A stretch of 12,065 nucleotides of DNA, taken from the IMG/VR virus record IMGVR_UViG_2579778856_000001; one strand, 5' to 3'. The notes beneath the pieces were generated by a model. The model was not told where the DNA came from. It ran no database searches and saw only the letters and a program-made list of their open reading frames with translations. Both the position numbers and the translations under genes were made by a program. The stretch is from a virus. Lineage: Duplodnaviria; Heunggongvirae; Uroviricota; Caudoviricetes. Below are positions 198-12,065 of this stretch, in pieces (the stretch's first letter is position 1; each line of letters starts with the position of its first letter).

Positions 198-395
198 AAT
201 TCTCGTCTGATGGCTACATACGGCGGTCAGTTTACGCTTACGTCCCTTCTGGTCAAAATGGACGAAGAAATGCTCTGCTTCTTCGACAGCAACGGGCGAA
301 CCACCATGCCCCGTAAAGCTTTCTCCCTGCGTACTGGCGTAACCCGCCGCCAGCTGTTTCCAGACGCCATTTACTTCATTGAACGGGAGTTCTGA
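198..395 (+). pseudogene. 3' remnant of an unidentified gene truncated by the IS66-family insertion, translationally coupled to the radC-like gene
   Basis: Track ORF 210-395 stays open back to 198, and the in-frame TAA at 189-191 lies inside the IS end. Codon usage is coding-like (TTC x6, ACC x3, GAC x3, CTG x3). The stop TGA 393-395 sits 1 nt before the radC-like ATG (tgacATG). No own start or RBS, and no family recognised. The antisense ORF 171-449 is the competing reading. Confidence 0.4.
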
Positions 396-396
396 C

Positions 397-849
397 ATGA
401 CCATGTTTACCCAGCGTGAAACCCGTATCCTTGACCAGGCGCGTGACATTATTAGCCGGTACTACCAGCGTGGGGTTCAACTCTGTTCCCCTGATGATGT
501 TCGACGGTGCGTGATGGTTGAGCTGGCACCGCTTGAACATGAAGAGTTTGGCATCATCCTACTCGATAATCATAATCAGCTGCTGCACCGCGAAATCCTG
601 TTCAGGGGTACGCTAAACTCGGTCAGCGTTCACCCCCGTGAAGTTATTAAGCGTGTGCTGAAACATAACGCCGCCGCCGTCATCCTTGTCCATAATCACC
701 CCAGCGGCGAGCCTGAACCCAGCCGGTGTGACATCCAGTTGACCAAAAAGCTTCAGGAGCTGCTGGAAATACTGGATGTGCGGTTACTTGATCACTTTAT
801 CGTGGCAGGAACTGAAACGGTGTCGATGGCTGAGCGAGGACTGGTGTGA
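397..849 (+). CDS. radC: RadC-like JAB-domain protein (DUF2466; YeeS/YkfG/YfjY-type of CP4-like islands)
   Basis: Track ORF 379-849 starts at TTG; ATG 397 is preferred (MTMFTQRETRIL...). Typical RadC-like core: EEFGIILLDNHNQLLHREILFRGTLNSVSVHPREVIKRVLKHNAAAVILVHNHPSGEPEPSRCDIQLTKKL...LDHFIV, including the HNHPSG metalloprotease-like motif. Confidence 0.85.
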   Translation: MTMFTQRETRILDQARDIISRYYQRGVQLCSPDDVRRCVMVELAPLEHEEFGIILLDNHNQLLHREILFRGTLNSVSVHPREVIKRVLKHNAAAVILVHNHPSGEPEPSRCDIQLTKKLQELLEILDVRLLDHFIVAGTETVSMAERGLV

Positions 850-895
850 TGCTGAAAGTTACTTGGTTTAATGTACGTTATTGCGGGTTACGCGC

Positions 896-1825
896 ATGAG
901 CAGGACAGCGTTGCGTCAGGTCGTGCCGGTGGTGCAAACCACCGTGTTCGATGCGTATATTGTCGGTCTGGCCCCCTCGGGACGGCGAGGTATCACCAGC
1001 CTGTTAAACCGCAGCGCCAGCATACTTAAACACGGTGCGGATGCAGCAGACTATCCGTGGGAACAACTTAACTACGCCGCCGTTGCCAAAGTGCGCGCGG
1101 CACTGCTGGATGACGGTTACGCCGTGTCATCGGTCAACATGGCGCTGTCAGCACTCCGGGGCGTAGCGCAGACGGCCTTTAACCTCAATTACATGGATGC
1201 CGAAACGCTGGCACGTATCCGGTCAGTTAAGCGCGTGAGCGGCGATGTCCAGCGCAAGGGAAGGGCGCTGGGCAGGCAGGAAATCCGGGTACTGATTCAG
1301 GCTGCAAAACAGCATCCGCAATCTGTACGGCGCTGTCGCGATGTCGCCATTGTGCTGATGCTTTGCGGAACGGGCCTGCGGGCCGGGGAACTGGTTAAAC
1401 TTGAGCGCCGGGACTATGACAACGGCATCCTGACGGTGAGGCAAGGGAAGGGGCGTAAATACCGTGAAATTCACGTGGCGGATGCGGTGGACAAGGCTAT
1501 TCGTGCGTGGCTGAAAGTTGGCGCAGACGAGGCTGACAGTGCGTTGTTTAGGCGAATTCAGCGCAGTGGTAAGGTCGCAAGCCAACCGCTGACTACGACC
1601 GGGTTAACGGGTATCCTGGCTGAGTTACAGCAAACGGCAGGTATAGCACGTTTTACCCCGCATGATATGCGGCGCACCTTCATCACCCGTTTGCTGGAGC
1701 AGGGCGTGGATATCAATACCGTCCGCCAGTTGGCAGGCCACAGCGACATATCCACGACGACGCGCTATGACTGTCGTGGTGATACTATGAAGATCAGTGC
1801 CAGCAAGCGCATCAGATGTTTTTAG
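896..1825 (+). CDS. Tyrosine site-specific recombinase (XerC/XerD-like phage integrase family)
   Basis: Track ORF 881-1825 (TTG start); ATG 896 gives MSRTALRQ.... The catalytic signature is in the correct order: GTGLRAGEL (Arg), GKGRKYREI (Lys), HDMRRTF (His-x-x-Arg), GHSDISTTTRYD (His ... Tyr nucleophile). An N-terminal SAM-like core-binding segment is present (VSSVNMALSALRGVAQ). Confidence 0.9.
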   Translation: MSRTALRQVVPVVQTTVFDAYIVGLAPSGRRGITSLLNRSASILKHGADAADYPWEQLNYAAVAKVRAALLDDGYAVSSVNMALSALRGVAQTAFNLNYMDAETLARIRSVKRVSGDVQRKGRALGRQEIRVLIQAAKQHPQSVRRCRDVAIVLMLCGTGLRAGELVKLERRDYDNGILTVRQGKGRKYREIHVADAVDKAIRAWLKVGADEADSALFRRIQRSGKVASQPLTTTGLTGILAELQQTAGIARFTPHDMRRTFITRLLEQGVDINTVRQLAGHSDISTTTRYDCRGDTMKISASKRIRCF

Positions 1826-2426
1826 CAGTTGAGGCGTTGCCAGACTCGGTTTCAGTTTCATCTTCAGCACTCAACCGCGCGTACTTTTGATTCTGGATGT
1901 TAATTTGTGCATTGATATTTTCAGGCTGAAGCATCCACGCAACATCCTCACGCGCCCATTCTTTACCGTCAGAGAGTCGTTTTAACCGGGGTTTCCATAT
2001 TCCATACTCATTAAGTTTTTCTGCTACCGAAGCATATTTCTCACGATCTGACTCCCCCGTATGAAGCTTGTCAAAACGACCTTTTACAAGCTGGTAAACA
2101 GTATAGATTTCCAGTGCCTTAGGGGACCTGGCCGGGACTATCATGGGGTGTTCCTCCGGCCTATAAATCCCGTTTGGCTCTCCCTCATTGAGCAGGTCAT
2201 TAAACATGTGGTTCACGCAGGCACTCAGCACATCTGCCGCTTTCTCCGCAGCGAATTTATCCGGGCTAAAACCCGCTCCCGTCAGTTTCCGGGCAATCAG
2301 TGCCAGTTTTTGCCGGGTATCCCGTCCCAGATAAAGCTTCTTCTCCAGAAATTCAAAGACCTCGTTACTGCTTTTCCGTTCCCGGTGGCATCTGGCGTCA
2401 GCCTTGTTGCTTTGGTTACCAATCAT
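1812..2426 (-). CDS. Hypothetical 204-aa protein, divergent from alpA; possible ribbon-helix-helix-type island regulator
   Basis: Track ORF 1812-2438. The second ATG (2426) is preceded by GGAGGT (2431-2436, minus) and is preferred. KKLYLGRDTRQKLALIARKL weakly resembles an RHH strand-helix. Acidic C-terminal tail (SAEDETETES). Its 3' end overlaps the recombinase 3' end by 14 nt. No confident family. Confidence 0.6.
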   Translation of the reverse strand: MIGNQSNKADARCHRERKSSNEVFEFLEKKLYLGRDTRQKLALIARKLTGAGFSPDKFAAEKAADVLSACVNHMFNDLLNEGEPNGIYRPEEHPMIVPARSPKALEIYTVYQLVKGRFDKLHTGESDREKYASVAEKLNEYGIWKPRLKRLSDGKEWAREDVAWMLQPENINAQINIQNQKYARLSAEDETETESGNASTAKNI

Positions 2427-2648
2427 AGTCACCTCCATGACAGTGTTTTGTACAAAATATCACCATTGAGCCTCAGTGAAAATTGCTTCTTTATATGACC
2501 GTTCTGGAGACAGAAATAGATGATCTCGAATGACATCCACATTAAAGATGCCCTTAACGTGCTCAACGAAGGCATCGTTGAGTGAATCCTTGCGTTTTTT
2601 GGTGGTTGTAAATAACCCGCTCCTGAAACAGCTCAAAGGAGCACAAGC

Positions 2649-2846
2649 ATGAACACCAACCGTATTTTGCGTAAAAAAGAGGTACTTCATCTGACGGGGA
2701 ACTCGTCAGCGACGTTGTACCGACTCATCTCGAAAGGATTCTTTCCTTTGTCAAAGAGGCTAACGGGCGACAATGGCCGGGCGGTAGGCTGGCTGGAGAG
2801 TGATATCAATAACTGGGTTAACAGCCGTATGCAGGCGGGAGAATGA
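2649..2846 (+). CDS. alpA: AlpA-family phage/island transcriptional regulator (excisionase-like HTH, MerR superfamily)
   Basis: 65 aa. ILRKKEVLHLTGNSSATLYRLISKGFFPLSKRLTGDNGRAVGWLESDINNWVNSR matches the AlpA signature (LRxKEV...TGxSxSTLYRLI..G.FP.P.KLG.RAVGW.ESEI..W). AAGGAG lies 8 nt upstream of the ATG. Confidence 0.9.
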   Translation: MNTNRILRKKEVLHLTGNSSATLYRLISKGFFPLSKRLTGDNGRAVGWLESDINNWVNSRMQAGE

Positions 2847-2847
2847 A

Positions 2848-3315
2848 ATGAAAGAGATAAAATCGAAAACCAGTTCTGCGAAAAAAACGCTGGTTCCTTG
2901 GTTCGAAACTATGGGGAAACAGGTTGGTTTATCACAAGAAACGATATCAGCAGTGTTAAAGGAGCAGCGTTTACGGATACGTAAGCTTAACTACGCATCT
3001 GCATATACAGTGTCCAATATTCTCATACAGGATTGCGGCGGGGCCGATGACATGTGGAGCAACTACGCTAAACTGGCGCTTATCCTTGAGCGTTGTAAAT
3101 ACATTCCCTGCGGGAGCAGGGCCTGTGCATATTGTTCTACCGCTCAGCAATTACATTATCAGGGGGTGGATGTAACCGGGGAATACGCTTTATATCAGTT
3201 GCCTGAGTTATTTTTAGATTTTTTAGAAACAAACGACAAAAATTCCTCTTATCATTGGGATTACAATAAGTTAGTTGAGCGGCATGAAGATGCTCAGGCG
3301 AGGTCATTCGGGTAA
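2848..3315 (+). CDS. Hypothetical 155-aa protein with an N-terminal HTH-like segment and a Cys cluster
   Basis: Track ORF 2800-3315. The internal ATG 2848 follows the alpA stop (2844-2846) by 1 nt and has GGGAGA 6 nt upstream, so alpA-coupled translation is preferred. MGKQVGLSQETISAVLKEQRL looks like a helix-turn-helix. CKYIPCGSRACAYC is a possible metal site. No family recognised. Confidence 0.65.
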   Translation: MKEIKSKTSSAKKTLVPWFETMGKQVGLSQETISAVLKEQRLRIRKLNYASAYTVSNILIQDCGGADDMWSNYAKLALILERCKYIPCGSRACAYCSTAQQLHYQGVDVTGEYALYQLPELFLDFLETNDKNSSYHWDYNKLVERHEDAQARSFG

Positions 3316-3346
3316 TAGCCATTTCTGTATGGTGAAAAACTGACAT

Positions 3347-3381
3347 ATTACCCTGCCACTGCATTTTGGTGGCAGGGTAAT
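3347..3381. other. Perfect 13-bp stem-loop between the 155-aa and 284-aa genes
   Basis: ATTACCCTGCCAC (3347-3359) pairs with GTGGCAGGGTAAT (3369-3381) around a 9-nt loop. No T-run follows on the plus strand, so it is not a canonical terminator. The arm and loop contain CCACTGCATTTT, which recurs at 4335-4346. Confidence 0.6.
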
Positions 3382-3402
3382 CAATACAGCTAGGAATATT
3401 AA

Positions 3403-4257
3403 ATGAACGATTCTTATTACTTCAGAACATCTGACCCGGATTACATTCGTCACGCACCGTCAATGCTTGAGATTTTAAGTAAAGCATTCCCCACTATTAT
3501 TACCCAGCAGGAAAGTGAGTATGAACTGCAGCGTCTTAACCATTTACTAAATAAACTGAAAGGCAGCAATCGCTGCTACAACATCATTGCTCAAAAACTA
3601 AGGCAGTGCAGAAACGGATCTCCATGCAACAGTCTTATATGCCCGCATTGCCAGCGGGAACGCATTCTGGCGCAACTGGCTATGTTGCATGTCTTGCCGG
3701 GGAATTCAGCAGAATACGTGGGAGTGGTCCTGTTTTTCAACAAGGATACGCAAACTCCGCCGCCATGGAAGAACATTGGGGCGCTCAGGGCGCAAATCGG
3801 TCGTTATAAGCAGAGGATAAGCCGGGTACTTAACCGCCTGGGGTACGCCGGTCCGGCCACAGGCACCTTCAGTATGATGCGACATATGCCTGATGGCCCA
3901 GAAGAGCGTATTTTCTGGGTTCCACAGTTGTGTTTGTTCCTGCCCAATGACAGTACGTTGATTAAGGGGCTAAAAGCGCATATGTCGCGAAGTGGTGGGG
4001 CATTCATTGATGCATCGACGCTTAACACACCAGTGATCGTGCTCAGGTATAAAGATCCCGCGAGACTGATTTCATGCGCCCTGAATCCAGTCTGGCACAC
4101 AGCAGATTACACACTGACTGATAAAGACGCTCTTGTTAAGTCAAGAATGGAGCTACTGAAAGGCCGGACACTGTTAAAAAGTCTGCTTACCCTGGACTCA
4201 CTCGGAACAGGTGTCGTTTCTTTTTCGTTTGGGCAACCCCCAGGGAAAGTGCACTGA
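3403..4257 (+). CDS. Hypothetical 284-aa protein with a C-x5-C-x4-C-P-x-C zinc-ribbon-like motif
   Basis: Track ORF with ATG start and AGGAA 8 nt upstream. The motif QCRNGSPCNSLICPHCQRERILAQ falls at about aa 68-90. It recalls the PCGxCxxCR zinc motif at the N-terminus of some rolling-circle Rep proteins, but no HUH histidines are seen at the expected place (FWVPQLCLFLPN). The function call is therefore open. Confidence 0.7.
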   Translation: MNDSYYFRTSDPDYIRHAPSMLEILSKAFPTIITQQESEYELQRLNHLLNKLKGSNRCYNIIAQKLRQCRNGSPCNSLICPHCQRERILAQLAMLHVLPGNSAEYVGVVLFFNKDTQTPPPWKNIGALRAQIGRYKQRISRVLNRLGYAGPATGTFSMMRHMPDGPEERIFWVPQLCLFLPNDSTLIKGLKAHMSRSGGAFIDASTLNTPVIVLRYKDPARLISCALNPVWHTADYTLTDKDALVKSRMELLKGRTLLKSLLTLDSLGTGVVSFSFGQPPGKVH

Positions 4258-4270
4258 TTTACCGGTAATG

Positions 4271-4401
4271 CAGCAACTGCAATGCACTTTTGCTGTTGAT
4301 TAAATTGCAGTGGAACGACGAATAACAGCGGCAACCACTGCATTTTCGTTGTTGTAAAACTGCAAAGCTTGCCAGTGATTTTGATGGCGCTGATGCACTT
4401 T
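4271..4401. repeat. Iteron/operator-like cluster of ACTGCA(A/T) and ATGCACTTT motifs with two hairpins
   Basis: ACTGCAA at 4276-4282, inverted copy TTGCAGT at 4305-4311, ACTGCAT at 4337-4343, ACTGCAA at 4359-4365. ATGCACTTT at 4282-4290 and 4393-4401. Hairpin CAGCAA/TTGCTG at 4271-4276/4290-4295. Hairpin TGCAGTGG/CCACTGCA at 4306-4313/4335-4342, followed by TTTT. Confidence 0.5.
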
Positions 4402-4439
4402 AACATTCCAACTGTCTCGATTTTAACGCAACCGTCTGT

Positions 4440-4833
4440 TTTCTGCAGGGGCTCACGGATGCCTCTGCACACCCGATCCTTACCATCAACTGACGAGTTA
4501 GCGCATCTGTGAGGGCTTTCTGTGTTTCTGTCAGTGAATATTCTACACACAATGGGGGGAGCGGTCAGCGAGCACCATTGCCATTGAGCGCAACGGAGAG
4601 CTTGGGGACATGCAGCACTACGGAGGCTTCATCTCCTTCTCATGTCATTAAACGATACGGCGAACGAGCGCAGCGAGTGAGGGAAGGCGTCAGCCTGAAC
4701 AGGGGGAAAGATTTGCGACCGGAGTGGAGCAAATCATGGGCGGAGCCCATCCTCGCGACTGGGGTTTTGACTTTCGAATTGCCCAGCGTTGAGTTTGGTT
4801 AATGTAGTGAGACGAGGATGCTGAGAGGGGACC
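4440..4833 (+). other. ORF-poor, more GC-rich leader upstream of the polymerase-like gene; candidate structured RNA or 5' UTR
   Basis: Only alternative-start or antisense ORFs with implausible composition cover it. Local hairpins: TGCAGGGGC/GCCTCTGCA (4444-4452/4461-4469, one G-U pair) and ATGGGC-gga-GCCCAT (4736-4750). Micro-tandems: TTTCTGTG/TTTCTGTC (4517-4532) and CCATTG x2 (4575-4586). Direct repeats GAGCGCA, CAGCGAG and GCGACYGG. No known RNA family recognised. Confidence 0.3.
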
Positions 4834-6231
4834 GTGAGTACTGAAAAGGATTATCCAGTGAAGATCCCTAAGTGGGTTTATGACCGTATTACTGAAATAA
4901 CGGATTATGTCGTGGGGGATACGCAATGGGCTGTTACCCGGCGGCAGACAGTACGGTGGTTCCTGGCTCACATATGGCTGGAAACAGACGATGATGGCTG
5001 GACTATATGCACTGTCCGGGATATCCGTAGCAGCTATGCCAGTCTCCTGGGACAGTGTGAAATTAGTTACCAGGGGGAGTGCTTTATGTCCACGCTAACT
5101 GATTTCCTGCCGACACTTTCGGATATTGAATTTCGTGCAGGAAAAGCGAGCAAAGACCCGGAAAAGCGTAGAGCCAGTGCATGGCGGTTCAACCCCCTGC
5201 TGCCTGTGTGTGATGAGTCTGCCAGGGGTAAGTTAAATCTGGTTGACTTGGATACTGGTGAGTCTGTTAGTTTTAGAGCTCTGCTTCAGGGGAACGGGAA
5301 AGCTCCTGGGCATGCGATAGATGTAGAGAAACGCCAGACGGCCCTAAAACAAACGGAAAAGGACTTCTTGGCCAAAGTTGGGCGGGGGCGCATGAGTATA
5401 CAGTTTGTGAAGGAATTGCGTAGCCGTGAGCCGGATCACTATTACCGCGCAGGAATACGCAGCCTTAACCATCTCTACAATGGCAGGATTGAGGGACAAT
5501 ATGTCACTTACGACCATCATTATCGTCTGACGTTTGGAGGGCGGTATTATGATCAAGCTTTCCAGAATCTGCCCAATGAGTTCAAAGCTAAATTTCGGAC
5601 CGGGTTACTCAACTATGACATCGAAGCGTGCAATCTGGCCTGTCTGAACCATCTGTTCAGACAGTATGACGTCGATTATCGTGTGAAGTCATCGATATAT
5701 AAAACCATGATGGAACATACCGGGCTGACCCGTAAACAGTGCAAACAGATGGTCCATACCACCACCTACAGAATTGGGCGTGTGACTATTGGTGTTAATG
5801 ATGGCCTTGGGGCAAAAGTGTATGGATGGTGCGGTAACAGCAAAAAAAAGGCGCTAAAGATTTTGCGTTGGTGGAACCGTTATATCAGTCCATTGAAATC
5901 TGCGCTTGAGTCATTGCTGGAACGTGTGCATGGCGCACACCGCAAGAGTTGTTCATCACCGCGTAACTATCACAGGTACGCTAATGAAGTCGGATTAATA
6001 CTGGATCTTAATAGTGAGGTGTATCAGCGTGAAAAGACTCACCATCATCAATATGCGCGGAATAAGGCACTGTTGGCGTTTATGATCTGTGGTGTGGAGC
6101 AGGCGTATATCCGTGAGGTTGTCAGTATGAACCCTGGTCGTGTCTGCATGCTGGATCATGATGGGGTAGTGGCAACGGGCGCGCTTTCACTACCGGACTG
6201 GCGTGGTTTCACGATGAAAGTGAAGGACTAG
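4834..6231 (+). CDS. Compact family-A DNA polymerase-like protein (palm/fingers motifs present, no exonuclease domain); putative island replication polymerase/primase
   Basis: GTG start directly after an in-frame TGA (4822-4824), with GAGGGG at 4825-4830. Ordered PolA motifs: TFGGRYYDQAFQNLP (aa 233-247, compare TGRLSSxxPNLQNIP); LLNYDIEACNLACLNHL (aa 258-274, compare DYSQIELRxxAHL, motif A); RKQCKQMVHTTTYRIG (aa 300-315, exact R-x3-K-x7-Y O-helix spacing, motif B); VCMLDHDGVVA (aa 437-447, compare QVHDE, motif C). Inter-motif spacings resemble those of Pol I. Confidence 0.75.
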   Translation: MSTEKDYPVKIPKWVYDRITEITDYVVGDTQWAVTRRQTVRWFLAHIWLETDDDGWTICTVRDIRSSYASLLGQCEISYQGECFMSTLTDFLPTLSDIEFRAGKASKDPEKRRASAWRFNPLLPVCDESARGKLNLVDLDTGESVSFRALLQGNGKAPGHAIDVEKRQTALKQTEKDFLAKVGRGRMSIQFVKELRSREPDHYYRAGIRSLNHLYNGRIEGQYVTYDHHYRLTFGGRYYDQAFQNLPNEFKAKFRTGLLNYDIEACNLACLNHLFRQYDVDYRVKSSIYKTMMEHTGLTRKQCKQMVHTTTYRIGRVTIGVNDGLGAKVYGWCGNSKKKALKILRWWNRYISPLKSALESLLERVHGAHRKSCSSPRNYHRYANEVGLILDLNSEVYQREKTHHHQYARNKALLAFMICGVEQAYIREVVSMNPGRVCMLDHDGVVATGALSLPDWRGFTMKVKD

Positions 6232-6355: not shown

Positions 6356-7045
6356 TGTGAGTTCAACGGGTCGATGCAACGCTGTCCCTAATCAAGGGGG
6401 ACGTTGCCATGAAACGAAGAACTCGTATTAACTACACGCCAGAGCAAAAGGTGATTATTTGGGACAGATATAAGCAAGGTGATTCCCTGCATGATATCCC
6501 CCAGAATGTTCGACAGATTTCACTCTACTATCATGCCTACAATCCACCAGGCCGGTGGCTACCGTCCTCCCGTGCGAAAGCGGCACCGGTTAGCGTTTTC
6601 GCTTGATGAAAAAGAGGAGATATCCAGAGGACTGGTAGCAAAACGCATCATCAGGGACATCGCTGCTAAATTATCAATAGCTCCCTCAACGATTAGCCGC
6701 GAGATCAGGAGGCACGGCGGTGCAAAACAATACCGTGCAGCAAAAGCCGATCCTGCTGCGTGGGAAAATGCTCTGAGACCAAAACCTTGCAAGCTAATTG
6801 AAAGCCCCACATTGTGTAAAATCATTGCAGAGAAGATGCATCAGGACTGGTCGCCGGAACAAATTGGCGGTTGGCTAAAACGCTGTTATCCCGATAATCA
6901 GGAAATGCATGTGTCACATGAAATGATTTATAAAACGCTTTTTATACCAACCCGGGGAGCTTTAAAAAAAGAGCTGCAGCAATGCCTCAGAAGCGGAAGA
7001 GTAGTGCGTAGATCCAAAACCTCATCACTTAAAGTAAACAGAGAT
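6356..7045 (+). mobile_element. IS30-family insertion sequence remnant: left inverted repeat plus a 5' portion of the transposase gene; right part deleted
   Basis: TGTGAGTTCAACGGGTCGATGCAACGCTG (6356-6384) resembles, from memory, the IS30 IRL (TGTAGATTCAATTGGTCAACGCAACAG). It is followed by an IS30-type transposase N-terminus. No DDE catalytic domain and no right IR occur before the next gene. Confidence 0.65.
6409..7045 (+). pseudogene. IS30-family transposase pseudogene (frameshifted and 3'-truncated)
   Basis: Two track ORFs (6409-6606 and 6479-7090) join into one IS30-like N-terminus, MKRRTRINYTPEQKVIIWDRYKQGDSLHDI / (P)RMFDRFHSTI...STISREIRRHGG...WSPEQIGGWLK...HVSHEMIYKTLF...LRSGRVVRRSKTSSLK, if one C is removed from the C5 run at 6498-6502. 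Similarity ends near aa R188 of the second ORF (about 7042), before the DDE domain. Confidence 0.75.
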
Positions 7046-7227
7046 ACATTCTGGTCACGAATGCCCGGTTGTTCGTGCTTTGCGTTTTAATCGCATTTTA
7101 CAGTTTCTGCCTGCGTGCAGAGGTTGATGGTATTTTCTGAAAAAGCGGCTCGCTTTGCTAATGCATATGGCACAAATACAACAGTTTGTGTCATTCTGAC
7201 CCATCTTTATACCGCGACGGTGGAAAC

Positions 7228-9798
7228 ATGGATGAGCTGCTAACCCTTGGCTGCATTGCTTTATTCTTCGCACTGGTGGTGGTTCCCATCCTCGCGATTA
7301 TCGCGCTCAGCCGCAGCACGGCTGTTCGTTCTGAGCTGGCGACCCTGCGTCGCCGGGTGGAGGTGCTTGAGCAGCGCGGTGTGACTGAAGCACCCGCCAC
7401 AGTGGTAACAACTGTGCCGCAGAGTGTTTCGCAGATGGTTGTGCCTGTTGAAACGTCTTCGCCTGCGGTTAACATCGTGCTGTCGGAGCCTGTGGCTGAT
7501 GTCACGCCTGAGTCCGTTGACCCCTGGCGTCCACAACCGAAGCCGCAAAACGAGGCGCTACCCACACCAGCGGTCGAACAATCTTCCGCTTTTGGTGGGG
7601 TGATGTCGTCCCTGGTGCGCTGGTTTATGCAGGGCAACCCGCTGGCAAAGCTGGGTATTCTGCTTCTCTTCCTTGGCTTCTCCTTCCTGCTGCGTTATAC
7701 GGTTGAACACTCCCTGTTCCCGCTTGAGCTACGTCTGGTGGCGACTTCGCTGTTTGCGATTGCCCTGCTGGTAGTGGGCTGGCGATTGCGGCATAAACAG
7801 CTGGTTTATGCGCTGATCATACAGGGTGGAGCTACGGGGACGCTCTATCTCACCGTTTTTGGCGCATTCTGGCTCTGGCAGATGCTGCCGATGACGCTGG
7901 CGTTTGCATTACTGGTGGCGATTTGCGCGGCGAGCGTGGGACTGGCGATTATGCAAAAAGCGCTCAGCCTCGCGATGCTGGCAAGTATCGGTGGCTATCT
8001 GGCACCGCTGTTGCTTTCCACCGGCGGCGGTAGTCATGTGGCGCTCTTCTCTTTCTACCTTCTGCTTTCCGTCGGTATTCTCGCCATCAGCATCTGGCAA
8101 CACTGGCGCGAGCTTAATCTGCTTGGCCTGTTATTTACCTTTGGTATCGGCGGTCTTTGGGGACTCGACGGCTATCGATCAGAGTATTACCTGAGCAGTC
8201 AGCTTTTCCTGATAGCCAATACGATCATTTTTGGTGTGCTGAGCGTGGCGCTATCGCTACGAGCACAGGAGAAAGGTAAGCAGATTATTGATGGCGTGCT
8301 GTTGTTTGCATCGCCGCTGGTCGGTTTTGGCATGCAGTACGCCATAACCCGGCATATGGAATATGGTCCGGCGCTTAGCGCGCTGGGTTACGGCGGTTTC
8401 TATCTGGCGTTAGCATGGCTTGCATTGCGTCGCTATCCCTCTTTGGGGAGGCCGCTGGTGCTGGCGGCGCTGGCGCTGGGTGGGGCATTTACCACGCTCG
8501 CTATCCCACTGGCGCTTTCGGCCCGCTGGACGGCGATGGCCTGGGCGCTGGAAGGTCTCGGCATCCTCTGGCTGGGCGTGCAACAGCAGCAGCGGCGTAT
8601 GAGCTATAGCGGCACTGCGCTGCTGGTGCTGGCAGTGTGCAGCGCGCTGTGGGCGCAGATGAACGGGATGAGCGCGCTTTCTCTGGTGCTAATCTTTGCC
8701 GTACTCAGCCTCAGCTGGCTGGCTGCCGCCTGGCTGTGGCGCAATATTCAGTTGCAGGGTAGTTGGGTTCTGTTGGCTGGCGGTTTGATCTTCTGGATAA
8801 TCGCGCTCATTGGGGCATCGCAACTGGTGCTGAAAAAGGACTCGCTGGTGCTGTCTGGCGTGCTGGCGTTAATGGCGATATCGGTCTGGGGCTGGCGGAT
8901 TGTCTCTGGTCGTCTGGCCTGGTGGGAGCTGGATGTCAGCAAATGGTTGCTGTGGCCGACGATGCTGGTGATGCTGCTGTCTCAAATTTCACAACATGAG
9001 ATTTTTGCTGCGGGCTGGCAGAATCTGGCCTGGTGTCTGGCGTTACCCGCTGCGGGGGCATTGCTCTGGCGTGATGCTGAGACGTTGCCGCCGCGCCTCT
9101 CCAGACTGGCGCACCTTTCACTCTTCTGGATGATTCTGCTCGCGCTGGCGGCGGAGCTATTCTGGTTTGCGCAAGATCTGCCATGGGGCATGGCGGCGTG
9201 GGGCTCCGGCCTGATGATGGCCGCGGGGGGCCTGCTCATCTTTCTCGTTCATGAGGCGGTTCATCGTCAGCTATGGCCATTCCGAAGCTGGCCCGCACTC
9301 TACGCTTCTCAGGCGATGATACCGGTAGCTGCGGTATTGGTTGTTCTGCTAGTACTGACGAATTTGCAGGATGGCGTAGTTTATCGCCAGACCTGGCTGC
9401 CGCTGGTGAATCCACTGGAGGAGGGGGCCGCTTTTGCGCTACTGGGACTCATTGTATTTTATCGCGTTTCGCAGCGCTTTTTCCCGGTGCAGATTTCGGT
9501 ATGCCGTCCCTGGCCGCTCATTGCACTGCTGGCGCTTAGCTTCTGGTGGCTGAATGGCATCCTGCTGCGCGCATTGGCCTGGTACGGCGAAGTGCCCTGG
9601 AGCGCGGAAACACTGTGGCATTCGCGGCTGATTCAGACCTGTTTTGCCCTGTTCTGGATGCTGGCGGCATTAGTGGTGATGCTACGTGCGACCCGGCGTT
9701 GCTCACGTCGCGAATGGCTTTGTGGATCCGTATTGTTAGGGATTGTTATTGTGAAACTGATGTTGGTAGACAGTGCGCGTGGCGGCGGCCTGGCATGA
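7228..9798 (+). CDS. DUF2339-type polytopic inner-membrane protein (856 aa), apparently lacking its natural C-terminus
   Basis: Track ORF 7186-9798 (TTG start). ATG 7228 with GGTGGA upstream gives MDELLTLGCIALFFALVVVPILAIIAL. The layout is one TM, then a coiled LATLRRRVEVLEQRG segment, then a Pro/Val-rich linker, then more than 20 hydrophobic helices. This is the architecture I recall for DUF2339. It ends ...KLMLVDSARGGGLA, and the TGA stop is supplied at the sequence-character break (9796). Confidence 0.8.
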   Translation: MDELLTLGCIALFFALVVVPILAIIALSRSTAVRSELATLRRRVEVLEQRGVTEAPATVVTTVPQSVSQMVVPVETSSPAVNIVLSEPVADVTPESVDPWRPQPKPQNEALPTPAVEQSSAFGGVMSSLVRWFMQGNPLAKLGILLLFLGFSFLLRYTVEHSLFPLELRLVATSLFAIALLVVGWRLRHKQLVYALIIQGGATGTLYLTVFGAFWLWQMLPMTLAFALLVAICAASVGLAIMQKALSLAMLASIGGYLAPLLLSTGGGSHVALFSFYLLLSVGILAISIWQHWRELNLLGLLFTFGIGGLWGLDGYRSEYYLSSQLFLIANTIIFGVLSVALSLRAQEKGKQIIDGVLLFASPLVGFGMQYAITRHMEYGPALSALGYGGFYLALAWLALRRYPSLGRPLVLAALALGGAFTTLAIPLALSARWTAMAWALEGLGILWLGVQQQQRRMSYSGTALLVLAVCSALWAQMNGMSALSLVLIFAVLSLSWLAAAWLWRNIQLQGSWVLLAGGLIFWIIALIGASQLVLKKDSLVLSGVLALMAISVWGWRIVSGRLAWWELDVSKWLLWPTMLVMLLSQISQHEIFAAGWQNLAWCLALPAAGALLWRDAETLPPRLSRLAHLSLFWMILLALAAELFWFAQDLPWGMAAWGSGLMMAAGGLLIFLVHEAVHRQLWPFRSWPALYASQAMIPVAAVLVVLLVLTNLQDGVVYRQTWLPLVNPLEEGAAFALLGLIVFYRVSQRFFPVQISVCRPWPLIALLALSFWWLNGILLRALAWYGEVPWSAETLWHSRLIQTCFALFWMLAALVVMLRATRRCSRREWLCGSVLLGIVIVKLMLVDSARGGGLA

Positions 9799-9915
9799 TC
9801 AGACATGAGATAAATGAAGGGGGATCCGTGAGATAAATAACGAATTGGAGTGGGTTAACATGGGTTCTGGTGAACAGAACTGAAATTCTTTTCCGCTATA
9901 CGATAGATAAGTCGG
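9796..9915. repeat. Putative transposable-phage terminus with repeated transposase-binding-like sites
   Basis: The junction begins TGATCAGA.... CATGAGATAAATGA (9804-9817) and CGTGAGATAAATAA (9827-9840) share an exact TGAGATAAAT core (9806-9815 and 9829-9838) 23 bp apart. A degenerate third copy is ACGATAGATAAGT (about 9900-9912). From memory these resemble the CACGATAAATGCGAAA element of the Mu right end. Confidence 0.45.
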
Positions 9916-9918
9916 GCA

Positions 9919-9948
9919 TTGAAATCATCCTTCCTGGCAACTTAGAAT
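9919..9948 (+). promoter_or_regulatory. Candidate sigma70 promoter for the 53-aa ORF
   Basis: TTGAAA (9919-9924), 18-nt spacer, TAGAAT (9943-9948), lying about 45 nt upstream of ATG 9992. Sequence match only. Confidence 0.3.
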
Positions 9949-9991
9949 CGAGTTTGCTGAAACATGACCCGCAACAAAAAGGATGATTCCA

Positions 9992-10153
9992 ATGACTACT
10001 CAAAACAATAAGCATGATAGCCTGGATTACTCAGAAAAGCCCAAAAGCAAGCACATCGTGACGTTCGAGCGCGATTCCGGTAGAAAAGGAGAATCGTCTT
10101 CCTCTGCCAATAAAACCACTATGCCGGCAGCCCCTGCCCCAGGGAAAAAATAA
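9992..10153 (+). CDS. Small hydrophilic 53-aa hypothetical protein
   Basis: Not in the track (under 60 aa). ATG 9992 with AAGGA (9979-9983) upstream. Translation: MTTQNNKHDSLDYSEKPKSKHIVTFERDSGRKGESSSSANKTTMPAAPAPGKK, stop TAA 10151-10153. Convergent with the 3-TM gene, with only 3 nt between the stops. No family recognised. Confidence 0.35.
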   Translation: MTTQNNKHDSLDYSEKPKSKHIVTFERDSGRKGESSSSANKTTMPAAPAPGKK

Positions 10154-10156
10154 ACA

Positions 10157-10789
10157 TCATTCATCGTTCGTTGCACGAACGCGCCTGATCTCCACTCTGG
10201 CAATCTGATCTGCTGGAATATAGGTTGCCAGAGCTCCCCAGTACTTATCAACCACGCCTTTATACTCTTCCCATTCGTTACTGCCTGAAGGGCTGCTGTG
10301 CGTGACGTAAAGAACCATATCGCCTTTATTCCCCAGGGTAAACGGACCGTTAGGCCACTCTTCAAAGTTCCCTGGCAGCCGTGACATCATACCGGAACCA
10401 TCGCGAAGAATCACTCTGACCTCGGTAACGCTGAAGCCTGTTTGATCAAACATTGCCTGCCATGCTGAGCTGGTATCGTCAGACCATGAAATATCATTAT
10501 TCCACAGTAATCTGTACATCCATTTGCGACCGTACCTGCGCCACCACGCACCGCATGTAAGGGCACACAGAAGTGCTGGTGGTGTTGCCAGCCAGGCATT
10601 CAGACCTGCCCACATAACAGCCTGGTAAGCCATCATTGCTGTCAGGCCAAAAATCAGCGAAGAAAAAGTCACCTCAATGGGCTTGTGGTGATCCTTCAGT
10701 CCCACATTCGCAATAAAATACCCAATATAGCCACTGGTCAGGGTCACCAGTGTTGCCCATGGCAGATTTAACAACGAAACGTCAAACAT
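10157..10789 (-). CDS. 210-aa membrane protein: three N-terminal TM helices plus a soluble C-terminal domain of about 110 aa (prophage cargo, unknown function)
   Basis: Track ORF 10157-10867. Its first 26 codons span the mor terminator, so ATG 10789 with AGGGAGAA upstream is preferred (MFDVSLLNLPWATLVTLTSGYIGYFIANVGL...). TM helices: LPWATLVTLTSGYIGYFIANVGL, VTFSSLIFGLTAMMAYQAVMWAGL, AWLATPPALLCALTCGAWW followed by RRYGRK. The C-terminal domain is W/E/D-rich. No family recognised. Confidence 0.7.
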   Translation of the reverse strand: MFDVSLLNLPWATLVTLTSGYIGYFIANVGLKDHHKPIEVTFSSLIFGLTAMMAYQAVMWAGLNAWLATPPALLCALTCGAWWRRYGRKWMYRLLWNNDISWSDDTSSAWQAMFDQTGFSVTEVRVILRDGSGMMSRLPGNFEEWPNGPFTLGNKGDMVLYVTHSSPSGSNEWEEYKGVVDKYWGALATYIPADQIARVEIRRVRATNDE

Positions 10790-10827
10790 ATTTTCTCCCT
10801 GCATCCTGAATACTAAAGAGAGAGCAT

Positions 10828-10861
10828 AAAAAAAGCACGGTAAGGGGTCTACCGTGCTTTT
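10828..10861 (-). terminator. Rho-independent terminator downstream of mor (bidirectional geometry, stronger on the minus strand)
   Basis: Stem GCACGGTA (10835-10842) pairs with TACCGTGC (10850-10857) around the loop AGGGGTC. It is flanked by A7 (10828-10834) and T4 (10858-10861). Read on the minus strand, the hairpin is followed by TTTTTTT. Confidence 0.8.
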
Positions 10862-10903
10862 ATACAATAAGGAGATTTTTGAAAGGACTTTAACAAGCAG
10901 GAA

Positions 10904-11302
10904 TTATCTGGATTTGTTAACGTCTTTCGTCTCCTCTGGCAGATCTTCATCAAACAACCTGCCCTGCATCCGATCCAGTTCTTCTTTTCTGACCCGCTTA
11001 ACCACGCTGTAGACCCACTGAAGCGAAACACCAAACTTGCGGGCCAGTTCGTGGTGGTTGCGTCCGTTAAACTCCCTGAAGATTTCCCGGTCGCGCTGAC
11101 TGACCTTCCATACCATGCCCATCGGGAAATAAACGTTTTGCCCGCCCCAGACCTGCATCATTCGGTTCGCGACGGCCTGACCAATCTGGTCGGCAACTTC
11201 GGGCTCAATATCAATAATCTCGCGAACGGTCTCAGAGGTATGCTGTGCCAGTTCCACCAGGAGTTCCGGCCCCTTACTTCGAAACTGATTCAGGTCGCTC
11301 AT
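10904..11302 (-). CDS. mor: Mor-family middle-operon transcriptional activator (Mu gp17-like)
   Basis: 132 aa with GGGAG upstream. The central GGQNVYFPMG...REIFREFNGRNHHELARKFGVSLQWVYSVVKRVRK parallels Mu Mor (GGGQVYIPRG...IWNDFNGRNVSELTTRYGVTFNTVYKAIRRMRR). Located immediately downstream of gemA, as in Mu. Confidence 0.85.
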   Translation of the reverse strand: MSDLNQFRSKGPELLVELAQHTSETVREIIDIEPEVADQIGQAVANRMMQVWGGQNVYFPMGMVWKVSQRDREIFREFNGRNHHELARKFGVSLQWVYSVVKRVRKEELDRMQGRLFDEDLPEETKDVNKSR

Positions 11303-11726
11303 GTTTGACTCCCGCAGCTCTGCGCTGCCACTTCTTCAGTTTCTCAATAACACTGCTTGCCTGTTCAGTACTGAGCCAGCGCAGGGCGCTGATGCCCGTT
11401 TCCCGCTTGATCCACCGCGCTAATGCATTTTCTGAACGGTCACGAACAATGCCGGCAGCAGCCATTTCAAGCCATAGCGCACGGATTTTCCTGGACTGCG
11501 GATGGTTATCCAGCGGTAAACCGGAGCTGGCTTTTCCGGCAGGCTTAACGCGAAAGCCTTTCCTTTTCATGGATTCCAGCACGCAGTTTAGTTGTGTGGT
11601 ATCCATTCCTTTGGTTGAGGCTTTACCGGTCAGCCCCTGTAACATCTGGCGGTAGGTGTCTTCATCCATACCCAGTTCATTACGGGCAATATGAATGAGC
11701 TGGATAAGACGTTGTTTAGTCATCAT
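11274..11726 (-). CDS. gemA: GemA-like regulatory protein (Mu gp16, DUF1018)
   Basis: Track ORF 11274-11765. ATG 11726 has AAGGAG 5 nt upstream (MMTKQRLIQLIHIARNELGMDEDTYRQML...). IHIAxxxLGxDxDTYRxxL...RKIRALW...ALxRWIKRETGISALRWL is the DUF1018/GemA pattern. It overlaps the mor start by 29 nt. Confidence 0.8.
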   Translation of the reverse strand: MMTKQRLIQLIHIARNELGMDEDTYRQMLQGLTGKASTKGMDTTQLNCVLESMKRKGFRVKPAGKASSGLPLDNHPQSRKIRALWLEMAAAGIVRDRSENALARWIKRETGISALRWLSTEQASSVIEKLKKWQRRAAGVKHERPESVSK

Positions 11727-11931
11727 CGTTGCTCCTTTTACCTGCGCCACCGATATAATCGACATATAAAGGAAGCGCCACAGGCCAGCACAGGAACATC
11801 ACCGACCAGCTAATCCAGTAGCCAGCACCACTGTAACGTGAATAAAACCCTGAACGGCGGTGCAGTTCAGCAGTACACCAACCGACAAAACAATACCAGA
11901 ACAGGGCACATACAACAGATTCAGCCGTCAT
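11716..11931 (-). CDS. Small 71-aa two-TM membrane protein of the Mu-like early region
   Basis: Track ORF 11716-12045 (GTG start). The internal ATG 11931 is preferred because a better-looking upstream gene in another frame ends at 11921. MTAESVVCALFWYCFVGWCTAEL...YWISWSVMFLCWPVALPLYV gives two hydrophobic helices. Its stop overlaps the gemA start (ATGATGACTAA). Confidence 0.5.
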   Translation of the reverse strand: MTAESVVCALFWYCFVGWCTAELHRRSGFYSRYSGAGYWISWSVMFLCWPVALPLYVDYIGGAGKRSNDDD

Positions 11932-12064
11932 TCTGAATATCCCCCCAACTGATATGAATATTACGGGCAGCAATGACAGGGTCGTTATTCCACCATGCAC
12001 CTGACATGTATTTTTCAACCTGTTCGCGTCCGGCAATAACACCAATTGTGATCCCCGGCCTGAC
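11921..12064 (-). CDS. C-terminal 47 codons of an unidentified Mu-like early-region protein (5' part beyond the right edge)
   Basis: Not in the track. The minus frame from 12064 reads VRPGITIGVIAGREQVEKYMSGAWWNNDPVIAARNIHISWGDIQNDG then TGA (11921-11923). This overlaps the ATG of the next gene by 11 nt, a typical phage operon overlap. Globular-looking composition. Confidence 0.45.
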   Translation of the reverse strand, partial: VRPGITIGVIAGREQVEKYMSGAWWNNDPVIAARNIHISWGDIQNDG

Positions 12065-12065
12065 G

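Follow-up and report, generated by a model that had tools for sequence, protein, structure and literature searches.

An accessory two-gene cassette next to mor, at the left end of a BcepMu-like prophage, pairs a predicted inner-membrane protein with a proline-rich peptide

Classical membrane exclusion proteins, such as gp15 of HK97, Imm of T4, and SieA and SieB of P22, are encoded by morons. In CBASS, the membrane effector Cap15 carries a small cytoplasmic beta-barrel as its sensor. The channel protein MscS has three transmembrane (TM) helices with the N terminus out and the C terminus in, the third running straight into an Sm-like beta domain, and rings of 6 or 7 members are typical of Sm-like domains. 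To our knowledge, no proline-rich peptide partner belongs to Cap15-type or abortive-infection systems. Such a partner is found beside a membrane protein of the DUF6338 family in Pseudomonas stutzeri, as described in a proteomics study that was the one paper found in the DUF6338 literature (PMC10433244). There, the DUF6338 gene Pstu14405_RS12030 is directly followed by three genes for proline-rich small proteins of 36 to 47 amino acids ending in ...PPPPKK, two of which are MVSSPGSGVQTNGANPPAPANVRPAMAPTAPPPPKK and MTKKIGGNPGSPVQGGVNKETTSQRPSAPPSAPPPPPKKGG (PMC10433244). The peptides were abundant by mass spectrometry and were recovered full-length and unmodified, from samples that did not include membrane fractions. 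The authors considered the genes an operon that is not conserved beyond P. stutzeri, raised a possible antimicrobial role of proline-rich small proteins, and noted DUF6338 in biosynthetic gene clusters as well (PMC10433244).

Here, we analyzed a 12,065-nucleotide stretch of DNA (the window) in which a host DUF2339 gene is interrupted by a BcepMu-like prophage. Each query match was confined to the host part or to the phage part, never spanning both, which places the junction at 9795/9796 and confirming the initial annotation, made from the sequence alone, that the gene under study lies at a prophage end. Its likening of the site to the end at which Mu keeps mom is only loosely apt, since the end concerned is that of the early operon (mor) in a genome of the BcepMu type. 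The 10-bp direct repeat TGAGATAAAT occurs at 9806-9815 and 9829-9838, and the end sequence including both copies is invariant in three further prophages (L013 to L015). By analogy with the ends of Mu and KS10 (PMC2628397), the repeats are probably transposase-binding sites. Coordinates are collected in Table 1.

Table 1. Features of the prophage end and its cassette (window coordinates; ".", no strand assigned)
Feature	Coordinates	Strand	Details
Early-side (left) prophage end	9796..9864	.	Begins with TG; two 10-bp direct repeats
Accessory cassette	9865..10943	.	1,079 bp; includes the last 13 mor codons
Predicted sigma-70-type promoter of peptide gene	9919..9948	+	TTGAAA, 18 nt, TAGAAT
Peptide gene (53 aa)	9992..10153	+	phrog_15726, E 1e-41; annotated in RefSeq
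Inner-membrane protein gene (210 aa)	10157..10789	-	Three TM helices and cytoplasmic domain (98-210), predicted
Ribosome-binding site	10795..10799	-	GGGAG, 5 nt before ATG; read from sequence
Weak candidate promoter of membrane gene	10823..10851	-	TAGACC 10851-10846, 17 nt, TATGCT 10828-10823
Intrinsic terminator, between mor and membrane gene	10828..10861	-	Stem 10861-10831, 13 bp; 5-nt loop; seven Ts, 10834-10828
mor, late or middle transcription activator	10904..11302	-	PF08765, E 1e-43
gemA (gp16 family)	11274..11735	-	PF06252, E 1e-40; upstream of mor

The membrane gene is optional cargo. Among complete E. coli genomes, gemA-mor of this type is present in 640 and the membrane gene in 132, i.e., in only about one fifth. 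Mor is the last backbone gene of the early operon, and in closely related E. coli prophages, in the isolates PhiKM and KP12, and in BcepMu (whose gene 1 encodes the Mor homolog, 364 nt from the end of the genome), it adjoins the phage end directly, which agrees with the earlier statement that the gene stands outside the conserved gene order. Homology to the cargo-less prophages ends at 9864, and their matches begin at query position 41, which is window position 10944; a local alignment with L013 likewise gave homology at 9796-9864 that resumes from 10944 onwards. The GC content of the region 9950-10943 is 47.4%, versus 55.2% for the prophage in L001. Furthermore, sequence identity varies independently among the membrane protein, Mor, and the transposase: in L045, the transposase is 99% and the membrane protein 72% identical, and in L010, the membrane protein is 65% and Mor 34% identical.

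In the terms used for morons by Hendrix and Juhala, the segment is an insertion (1,079 bp between phage end and mor where cargo-less relatives have 126 bp) that contains its own terminator, the position of which is conserved while the stems differ. As for promoters of its own, the peptide gene has a conserved predicted one and the membrane gene a weak candidate. The locus is best explained as an accessory cassette of two genes and about 1.1 kb, a self-contained moron lying between the left prophage end and mor.

We place the start of the membrane gene at the ATG at 10789, as the RefSeq protein and all homologs begin with MFD; the TTG at 10867 given by a mechanical open reading frame list was rejected. 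That the gene is real follows from a dN/dS of 0.10 (at a dS of 0.47) and from a family profile that finds 522 cluster representatives (50% identity) with conserved architecture. The AlphaFold model (mean pLDDT, 84) has helices at residues 11-27, 37-60, and 65-97, followed by a helix and a beta domain, in line with the three TM helices described initially. The predicted topology is N terminus out and C terminus in, so that the C-terminal domain would be cytoplasmic. Hardly any of the protein would then be exposed to the periplasm. Conservation is very strong in the first TM helix. The Trp- and acid-rich soluble domain of about 110 residues noted earlier corresponds to the C-terminal 113 amino acids, with 5 Trp and 17 Asp/Glu versus 10 Lys/Arg. 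In the model, this part (residues 98-210) has an N-terminal helix, five bent strands, and structural matches to Sm proteins, suggesting a small beta-barrel of the Sm/LSm-like (SH3-like) kind.

The initial annotation recognized no family. This holds for Pfam, NCBIfam, and PADLOC, none of which gave a match, but PHROG 12870 matches residues 1-210 of 210 (E 2.8e-133). The window protein does not match Pfam DUF6338 (PF19865) even at an E of 10. Weak DUF6338 matches do occur in 18 of 33 family members (best E, 8.5e-6), and two relatives carry the NCBI name "DUF6338 family protein"; from these similarities, we treat the protein as a distant DUF6338 relative outside the family proper. Searching the literature for its accession returned nothing. 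Two other identities were rejected: that of a holin, for which there were only generic TM-helix matches (E of 0.06 or higher), and homology to MscS, with no Pfam MS_channel match and with MscS absent from the best fold matches listed. Positive or diversifying selection on the C-terminal domain was likewise rejected, dN/dS being 0.07 to 0.25 throughout. In three loci (L045, L048, and L050), the C-terminal half is older (dS of 1.7 to 1.9, versus 0.7 to 0.9), a pattern that points to recombination at the domain boundary rather than to positive selection.

A small convergent open reading frame at 9992-10153, together with a conserved promoter, was missing from the initial annotation. Its product is a basic, disordered peptide of about 50 amino acids with a proline-rich PxxPxK(K) tail; the window copy is hydrophilic, has a net charge of +4 (that of the cytoplasmic domain is -7, i.e., complementary) and a DYSEKPK motif, and ends in PAAPAPGKK. 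The stop codons of the two genes are 3 nt apart. Both are under purifying selection, the peptide gene having a dN/dS of 0.11 at a dS of 0.47, with no sign of diversifying selection in the dN/dS of the cassette genes. The predicted sigma-70-type promoter of the peptide gene agrees with the consensus at 10 of 12 positions in the scan. Both hexamers are clearly recognizable in seven other loci amid diverged DNA, and less so in L019. From a conserved sigma-70 promoter at the prophage end, constitutive expression would be expected, and the peptide is thus probably made continuously in the lysogen.

The peptide accompanies the membrane gene from Enterobacterales to Alphaproteobacteria. In both enteric and alphaproteobacterial loci, a small convergent open reading frame lies directly against the membrane gene, also where all neighbors are on the other strand. 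A strict count of proline tails (at least 4 Pro in the last 20 amino acids), which undercounts and misses the window's own peptide, was positive in 19 of 35 loci versus 94 of 1,377 control windows. The peptide profile, a better measure although built from the same family, found 54 open reading frames in 928 kb of loci, every one directly downstream of and convergent to a membrane gene. Family peptides are 33 to 57 amino acids long and include a polyproline subtype; in places, there are two or three tandem genes with variable N-terminal parts and a conserved tail. The peptide gene is absent beside apparently intact membrane genes in three Arsenophonus-type prophages, in L061, and perhaps in a Rhizobium locus (L074), which makes strict antitoxin dependence unlikely.

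Upstream of the membrane gene, the minus-strand terminator with its T7 tail lies exactly where the initial annotation had put it. It is the top-scoring terminator-like site within the window, and the hairpin (-14.8 kcal/mol alone) forms the core of the region's predicted fold. The distance of 38 nt from the last T to the ATG and the gene's own ribosome-binding site were also as described. At least nine divergent prophages have a hairpin with a T-run at a similar place, about 70 nt before the ATG (ten loci with differing stems). No consistent intrinsic terminator was found upstream of the membrane gene in alphaproteobacterial loci, and the hairpin is thus a trait of enteric Mu-like prophages. 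Because an A-run flanks it on the other side, the terminator may also end plus-strand transcripts, albeit weakly, with four Ts only.

The hexamer TATAAA, proposed initially as a possible -10 element, is present one base away from the span given (10864-10859, not 10858-10863). As a promoter of the membrane gene, it fares poorly: it has no -35 element at 16 to 18 nt, is absent from the promoter scan, and lacks conservation among relatives with the same hairpin. The suggested Mor-dependent promoter was dropped as well, since the region before the membrane gene and two upstream regions from late operons of this prophage type had only two 10-mers in common, with one mismatch, about as many as expected by chance (about 0.7 per comparison). 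Neither the promoter scan, the relatives' upstream regions, nor the late-operon comparison yielded a convincing promoter for the membrane gene. Purely as a hypothesis, the pair TAGACC/TATGCT could serve; it matches 8 of 12 consensus positions, under the scan threshold, with TAGACC inside the hairpin loop and TATGCT directly after the T-run. The motif TAT[TG]CT stands right behind the T-run in the window and in eight other loci.

Homologs of the membrane gene were found in cargo slots of unrelated prophages (HK97-like, P2-like, and siphovirus-like), in a conjugative element, and in defense islands, and not as conserved core genes of virion or lysis modules, an outcome that would have refuted the initial reading. 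A Rhizobium homolog has an Avs2-like gene on one side and the Shosta (ShosT/ShosA) and PARIS (AriA/AriB) systems on the other, and the homolog on the conjugative element has genes for a methylase-Mrr fusion and a DEDDh exonuclease as neighbors; these defense contexts are a handful of loci among about a dozen non-enteric contexts read. On plasmids, the cassette is rare (1 full-length match among 72,556 records), and Bradyrhizobium plasmids carry fragments of the membrane gene. The PADLOC check suggested initially gave no match for either the membrane protein or the peptide (PADLOC-DB 2.0 models, E of 1), and the membrane protein had no Pfam match to SieB or other Sie families. The genomic contexts are consistent with a defense or exclusion role, which is plausible; the missing PADLOC match and the dN/dS values without a sign of diversifying selection speak against it.

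As a whole, the locus is tentatively best explained as a moron cassette that serves as a defense or toxin-antitoxin-like module on a mobile element (probability of about 0.4). The membrane protein would be the effector, perturbing the membrane or causing exclusion from the cytoplasmic face, and the peptide would restrain or tune it, through convergent transcription, through a polyproline tail that docks on the beta-barrel, or through both. The effector could then be released by a change that a phage induces, such as the disappearance of the continuously made peptide. The hairpin would shield the membrane gene from early-operon transcription and could also end transcription of the peptide gene, which necessarily continues across the membrane gene in the antisense direction. 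Control by antisense cannot hold throughout the family, since the P. stutzeri peptides share the strand of the DUF6338 gene. In its boldest form, the proposal would be a new class of two-component defense or toxin-antitoxin module, in which a polyproline microprotein restrains a membrane effector via its SH3/Sm-like barrel. As the tail should be made only with EF-P and unimpaired translation, the microprotein would serve the cell as a sentinel for its translation state: once a phage shuts down translation, the peptide would disappear and the membrane protein would fire. We regard this version as improbable.

Several readings compete with a defense module. The pair could be a pure addiction system that stabilizes its carrier selfishly, with the membrane protein as toxin, the labile peptide or an antisense transcript as antidote, and no anti-phage role. 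Convergent toxin/antitoxin pairs overlapping at their 3' ends are known from Bacillus prophages, and the present pair is compact and convergent, its transcripts must overlap at the 3' ends, and its small gene has a strong conserved promoter. The cassette also occurs on many kinds of mobile elements, including a plasmid-like record and the conjugative element. However, the loci with a membrane gene and no peptide gene, the codirectional genes in P. stutzeri, and the rarity on plasmids all speak against addiction, which we consider rather unlikely. The reading that transposable-phage ends accumulate foreign DNA, and that the cassette is decaying or functionless DNA hitchhiking at a recombination-prone end, could draw on the gene fragments in Bradyrhizobium plasmids. 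It is already contradicted by the dN/dS of about 0.1 for both genes, the architecture conserved over the 522 representatives, and the conservation of promoter, ribosome-binding site, and hairpin, and we give it almost no weight.

The cassette may instead act in lysogenic conversion or the phage life cycle, as an MscS-like channel, a factor for stress or ion homeostasis, or a holin-like regulator of lysis timing. Three TM helices with an Sm-like beta domain are the core MscS layout too, the TM part weakly matches phage holins in Foldseek (E of 0.06 to 1), and the membrane gene follows the activator gene mor in Mu-like prophages. A place in the lysis cassette is not supported: this phage type has its holin and transglycosylase genes where the late operon starts, at a distance of about 11 kb, and the membrane gene is absent from most relatives. 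We think a conversion or life-cycle role improbable. Slightly harder still to credit is that the peptide is the active component (antimicrobial or binding the ribosome or a chaperone) and the membrane protein its exporter, immunity protein, or receptor. Short motifs such as SYTPRTT and RPVYIP recall insect proline-rich antimicrobial peptides, a resemblance that may be due to chance. Against this reading, the peptides have no signal or leader sequence, and the membrane protein has neither a transporter-like fold nor more than minimal periplasmic exposure. The tandem peptide genes with variable N-terminal parts would fit an active peptide, as would the antimicrobial role and the biosynthetic gene clusters raised for P. 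stutzeri, whereas the full-length, unmodified recovery of those peptides (in samples without membrane fractions) would not (PMC10433244).

If the cassette protects lysogens, it would be a compact, widespread, and so far unlisted addition to the anti-phage repertoire and would provide a function for DUF6338-type proteins. The constant partner, a peptide of 33 to 57 residues with a polyproline tail, is unusual. In P. stutzeri, relatives of the peptide rank among the unannotated small proteins of highest abundance (PMC10433244), making the cassette a tractable case for microprotein function. Well-studied E. coli strains, among them ABU 83972 and several of the ST131 type, carry the cassette, so experiments should be straightforward.

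Compared with known systems, the cassette resembles membrane-exclusion morons in being an optional unit between backbone genes, present in some but not all close relatives, with its own terminator, predicted promoter signals, and a predicted inner-membrane protein. It differs in showing no sequence or Pfam similarity to them and in the large, predicted cytoplasmic domain, the minimal periplasmic exposure that goes with it, and the peptide partner. With MscS, the protein shares the layout only, three TM helices running into an Sm-like domain, and it lacks the C-terminal alpha-beta domain of MscS. Cap15 and abortive-infection modules likewise combine a TM segment with a small beta-barrel, or a compact module with residence on mobile elements, and some homologs of our protein lie inside defense islands; unlike those modules, it has no PADLOC homology and no signal-producing enzyme nearby. 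DUF6338 and PHROG 12870 proteins are similar in size (about 200 amino acids) and in their N-terminal TM region, although the window protein itself gives no DUF6338 match, and as both families lack a known function, membership sheds no light on mechanism. The P. stutzeri locus shares the pairing of a DUF6338 membrane protein with proline-tailed peptides, a likeness of arrangement and tails. There, three peptide genes lie on the same strand as the membrane gene, whereas here, a single convergent gene is present, and the pairing is seen across Proteobacteria.

Positions 9796-12065, the right-hand 2.27 kb of the window, represent the early-side terminus of a transposable prophage. When positions 8800-10200 were compared by megablast with 5,426 complete E. 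coli genomes, matches covered either 8800-9795 or 9796 onwards, and none of the 5,426 genomes had both sides of the 9795/9796 junction in one record. Because the matches split there and never span the junction, we place the prophage start at 9796. The left side belongs to a DUF2339 membrane-protein gene, identical (100%) in many ST131-type genomes, and the matches from 9796 onwards are prophages at other insertion sites. Its sequence opens with TG, with two copies of TGAGATAAAT thereafter, and the element interrupts the DUF2339 gene (PF10101; E = 1e-146; window 7186-9795) in its 3′ part. Related prophages reside in gabP, near ycaL, xylR, and at other sites, a pattern that random transposition would be expected to give. 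Strain G749 has this 2.27-kb segment (99.8% identity) at the end of a full prophage, whose early operon (repressor, ner-like gene, transposase, ExeA-like B protein, gam, gemA, and mor) runs toward that end and whose lysis and virion genes are oriented oppositely. The transposase shares 98% identity with its counterpart in Escherichia phage PhiKM (assigned to Bcepmuvirus) and 68 to 69% identity with those of BcepMu and phiE255; gene 1 of BcepMu, which lies 364 nt from the genome end, is the Mor homolog.

Features of the early-side prophage end
Feature	Position	Strand	Remarks
Predicted peptide gene promoter	9919-9948	plus	TTGAAA-18-TAGAAT; conserved and clearly recognizable in 7 more divergent loci
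Peptide gene	9992-10153	plus	53-aa hydrophilic peptide; phrog_15726; annotated in RefSeq
Membrane gene	10789-10157	minus	210 codons; ATG at 10789, preceded by GGGAG (spacing, 5 nt)
Hairpin	stem 10861-10831	minus	13 bp; 7-T run, ending at 10828
71-aa membrane ORF, gemA (PF06252), mor (PF08765)	part of 9796-12065	minus	mor stop at 10904

Farther left, positions 379-6231 resemble a small integrative island, with genes for RadC (379-849), a tyrosine recombinase (881-1825), and an AlpA-type regulator (2649-2846); searches of Pfam, NCBIfam, and PADLOC gave no match for its ORFs of 208, 156, 284, and 465 aa. Immediately ahead of the DUF2339 gene is a pair of overlapping ORF fragments (6409-7090) that carry HTH_38 and HTH_32 domains; to judge from this domain pattern, they look like a disrupted N-terminal portion of an IS30-type transposase. 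At ∼90% identity, 144 bp of the prophage end (window 9805-9949; 4001-4144 in locus L073) recur at 106 sites on large plasmids of E. coli, where they lie in DNA that lacks annotation, next to fragments of IS3 and IS1; they resemble a remnant of the end of a Mu-like phage.

The initial annotation had regarded the membrane gene as cargo at the prophage end, correctly, and the E. coli counts show it to be optional: gemA-mor (≥80% DNA identity) is present in 640 complete genomes, and the 210-codon gene (searched to ∼65% identity) in 132. In the cargo-less relatives L013 and L014, host DNA starts ∼150 bp past mor. Homology with these relatives covers 9796-9864 and resumes at 10944, within the last 13 codons of mor; therefore, 1,079 bp in the window (9865-10943) replace 126 bp in the cargo-less relatives. 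The GC content of the cassette region 9950-10943 is 47.4%, versus 55.2% for the prophage in locus L001. Throughout the Enterobacterales, the membrane gene always comes after mor, in last place ahead of the prophage end, and membrane protein identity is uncoupled from backbone identity (99% for the transposase and 72% for the membrane protein in prophage L045; 65% for the membrane protein and 34% for Mor in L010). Among 50,697 phage records, the gene was found only in a plasmid-like “Synechococcus phage” record, at 30% identity. Some relatives carry an additional ORF (range, 78 to 95 aa) between mor and the membrane gene (L015, 3720-3956; L008, 7690-7977; L055, L056, and L058, upstream of 7001); in L055, L056, and L058, its stop codon directly abuts the ATG (...GGAGGACTGA/GGAGGATTGA then ATG). 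The cargo slot thus has more than one cassette layout.

The hairpin and its T-run rank as the strongest terminator-like site in the window in a terminator scan, and the hairpin is the core of the predicted fold of this region. The terminator coordinates and the 38-nt spacing from T-run to ATG in the initial annotation were exact, and it was right about the insulation. As it is located within the inserted segment, the hairpin belongs to the cassette. At least nine divergent enteric prophages have a hairpin and T-run ∼70 nt upstream of the ATG, with differing stem sequences. The flanking As opposite the Ts suggest that the hairpin may also terminate plus-strand transcripts, weakly. The TATAAA hexamer proposed as a promoter is present, but at 10864-10859, one base off the original span, and its promoter role is not sustained: there is no −35 element, and relatives that retain the hairpin have unrelated sequence there. 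TAGACC-17-TATGCT, with its −10 right after the T-run, is a weak, partly conserved alternative candidate and is offered as a guess. No motif common to the membrane gene upstream region and late promoters exceeded chance.

The membrane protein had no match in Pfam, NCBIfam, or PADLOC and matched PHROG 12870 (unknown function) end to end. Its family has 72 close clusters and, at 50% identity, 522 representatives with a common ∼205-aa architecture, all annotated as “hypothetical” or “DUF6338 family protein”; Pfam DUF6338 matched 18 of 33 aligned members weakly. An AlphaFold model (33-sequence alignment; pLDDT, 84) has helices at 11-27, 37-60, and 65-97 (the long one), then a further helix and five strands. 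Lys and Arg residues cluster in loop 29-39 and beyond helix 3, with none at the N terminus or in the 59-66 loop; therefore, the large domain is predicted to be cytoplasmic. The layout of three TM helices and an Sm-like domain is similar to that of MscS; no MscS structure was among the best fold matches listed. Conservation is highest in TM helix 1 and the next loop (NLPWATLVTLxSGYxGYFIANVG-K/R-D/E-HHK), and aromatic and acidic barrel residues (W110, Y161, W184, D104, and D157) are also conserved. The dN/dS of 0.10 (dS, 0.47, against the related locus L071) indicates purifying selection.

The peptide gene, absent from the initial annotation, has a dN/dS of 0.11, and its stop codon lies 3 nt from that of the membrane gene. 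Peptides of the same kind, convergent and abutting, occur in Serratia, Klebsiella, Citrobacter, Salmonella, and Symbiopectobacterium prophages and in Bradyrhizobium, Afipia, Devosia, and further alphaproteobacterial loci, as well as in loci whose neighboring genes are all on the opposite strand. They start with MT(T/E/D)K, contain one to three (N/S/D)-(Y/F/H)-x-(P/E) motifs, and end with PPxPxKK. A remoter subtype (...QPKAPPP...PPPPPP(S/K)(R/K)) sometimes occurs in two or three tandem copies, and the peptide of locus L080 (...DYRENSVQPKAPSPAPAPPPPPPSR) is intermediate between the two types. A profile built from 20 peptides and searched against 20,833 six-frame fragments (928 kb) matched 54 ORFs, all 54 in this convergent, abutting position. 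Apparently intact membrane genes that lack a peptide gene alongside occur in Arsenophonus-type prophages, L061, and perhaps L074. An inverted repeat, AATCATCCTT/AAGGATGATT (9923-9932 and 9978-9987), connects the −35/spacer part of the predicted peptide gene promoter with the RBS region; L008 (14 nt), L010, L016, L017, and L022 retain it, with matching substitutions, and it could be an operator or provide anti-Shine-Dalgarno pairing in read-in transcripts. Upstream of this promoter, just inside the cassette, a 7-bp hairpin followed by GAAATTCTTT (9863-9881, plus strand; partially conserved in L017 and L018) may block transcription from host DNA.

Outside Mu-like phages, the contexts of homologs are typical of cargo slots and defense islands. 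Homologs lie beside a serine resolvase (L023 and L026), after the gene for a gp6-type connector (HK97-like head module; L064), a Mu-F-like head protein (L069), or an Ogr/Delta activator (L061), in tail modules adjoining tape-measure genes (L067, L068, L077, and L080), and between replication genes and DUF1441, which we take to be the small terminase (L081). On a conjugative element (L076), a methylase-Mrr fusion and a DEDDh exonuclease flank the homolog, and in Rhizobium leguminosarum (L074), it has an Avs2-like/SMEK protein on one side and ShosT/ShosA (E = 1e-70), AriA/AriB, and IS66 on the other. Positions 1872-6313 of L074, by the Rhizobium homolog, encode a radical-SAM/SPASM enzyme, small ORFs of 121 and 131 aa, and the 884-aa SMEK/Avs2-like protein. 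Peptide-maturing defense systems with HxS-repeat effectors were recently described (PMC13128918), and this stretch may be a separate system of that kind.

Together, these data show a conserved cassette of two genes that is under selection and moves among defense islands and prophage cargo slots. As to function, we tentatively favor, at a probability of roughly 40%, a defense or toxin-antitoxin-like module, with the membrane protein as the presumed effector and the peptide as its presumed regulator; the proline-rich, Lys-ended tail of the peptide and the acidic, aromatic small barrel would match SH3-type recognition logic. The remaining probability is shared by a pure addiction module, a system centered on the peptide, and a physiological or life cycle function at the membrane. 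The earlier suggestion of an exclusion or defense gene is reasonable, if unproven.

Independent support for the existence of such peptides comes from P. stutzeri. The DUF6338 and peptide genes of CP036186.1 lie ∼14 kb from a DUF1156 methylase and SNF2/PLD helicase pair that looks like part of a DISARM-type system. The regions compared were 2646334-2652095 and 2666115-2667116 (PMC10433244, supplement). A proteogenomics study detected three proline-rich proteins that had escaped annotation (36, 47, and 41 aa; 44 to 114 spectra; coverage up to 100%), two of them ending in ...TAPPPPKK and ...APPPPPKKGG, with genes directly downstream of a DUF6338 gene; the authors considered this an operon, found no function, and regarded the peptides as not conserved beyond P. 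stutzeri (PMC10433244). The peptide genes in P. stutzeri are codirectional with the DUF6338 gene, whereas the one in the window is convergent, and the general feature is therefore the pairing rather than the convergent layout.
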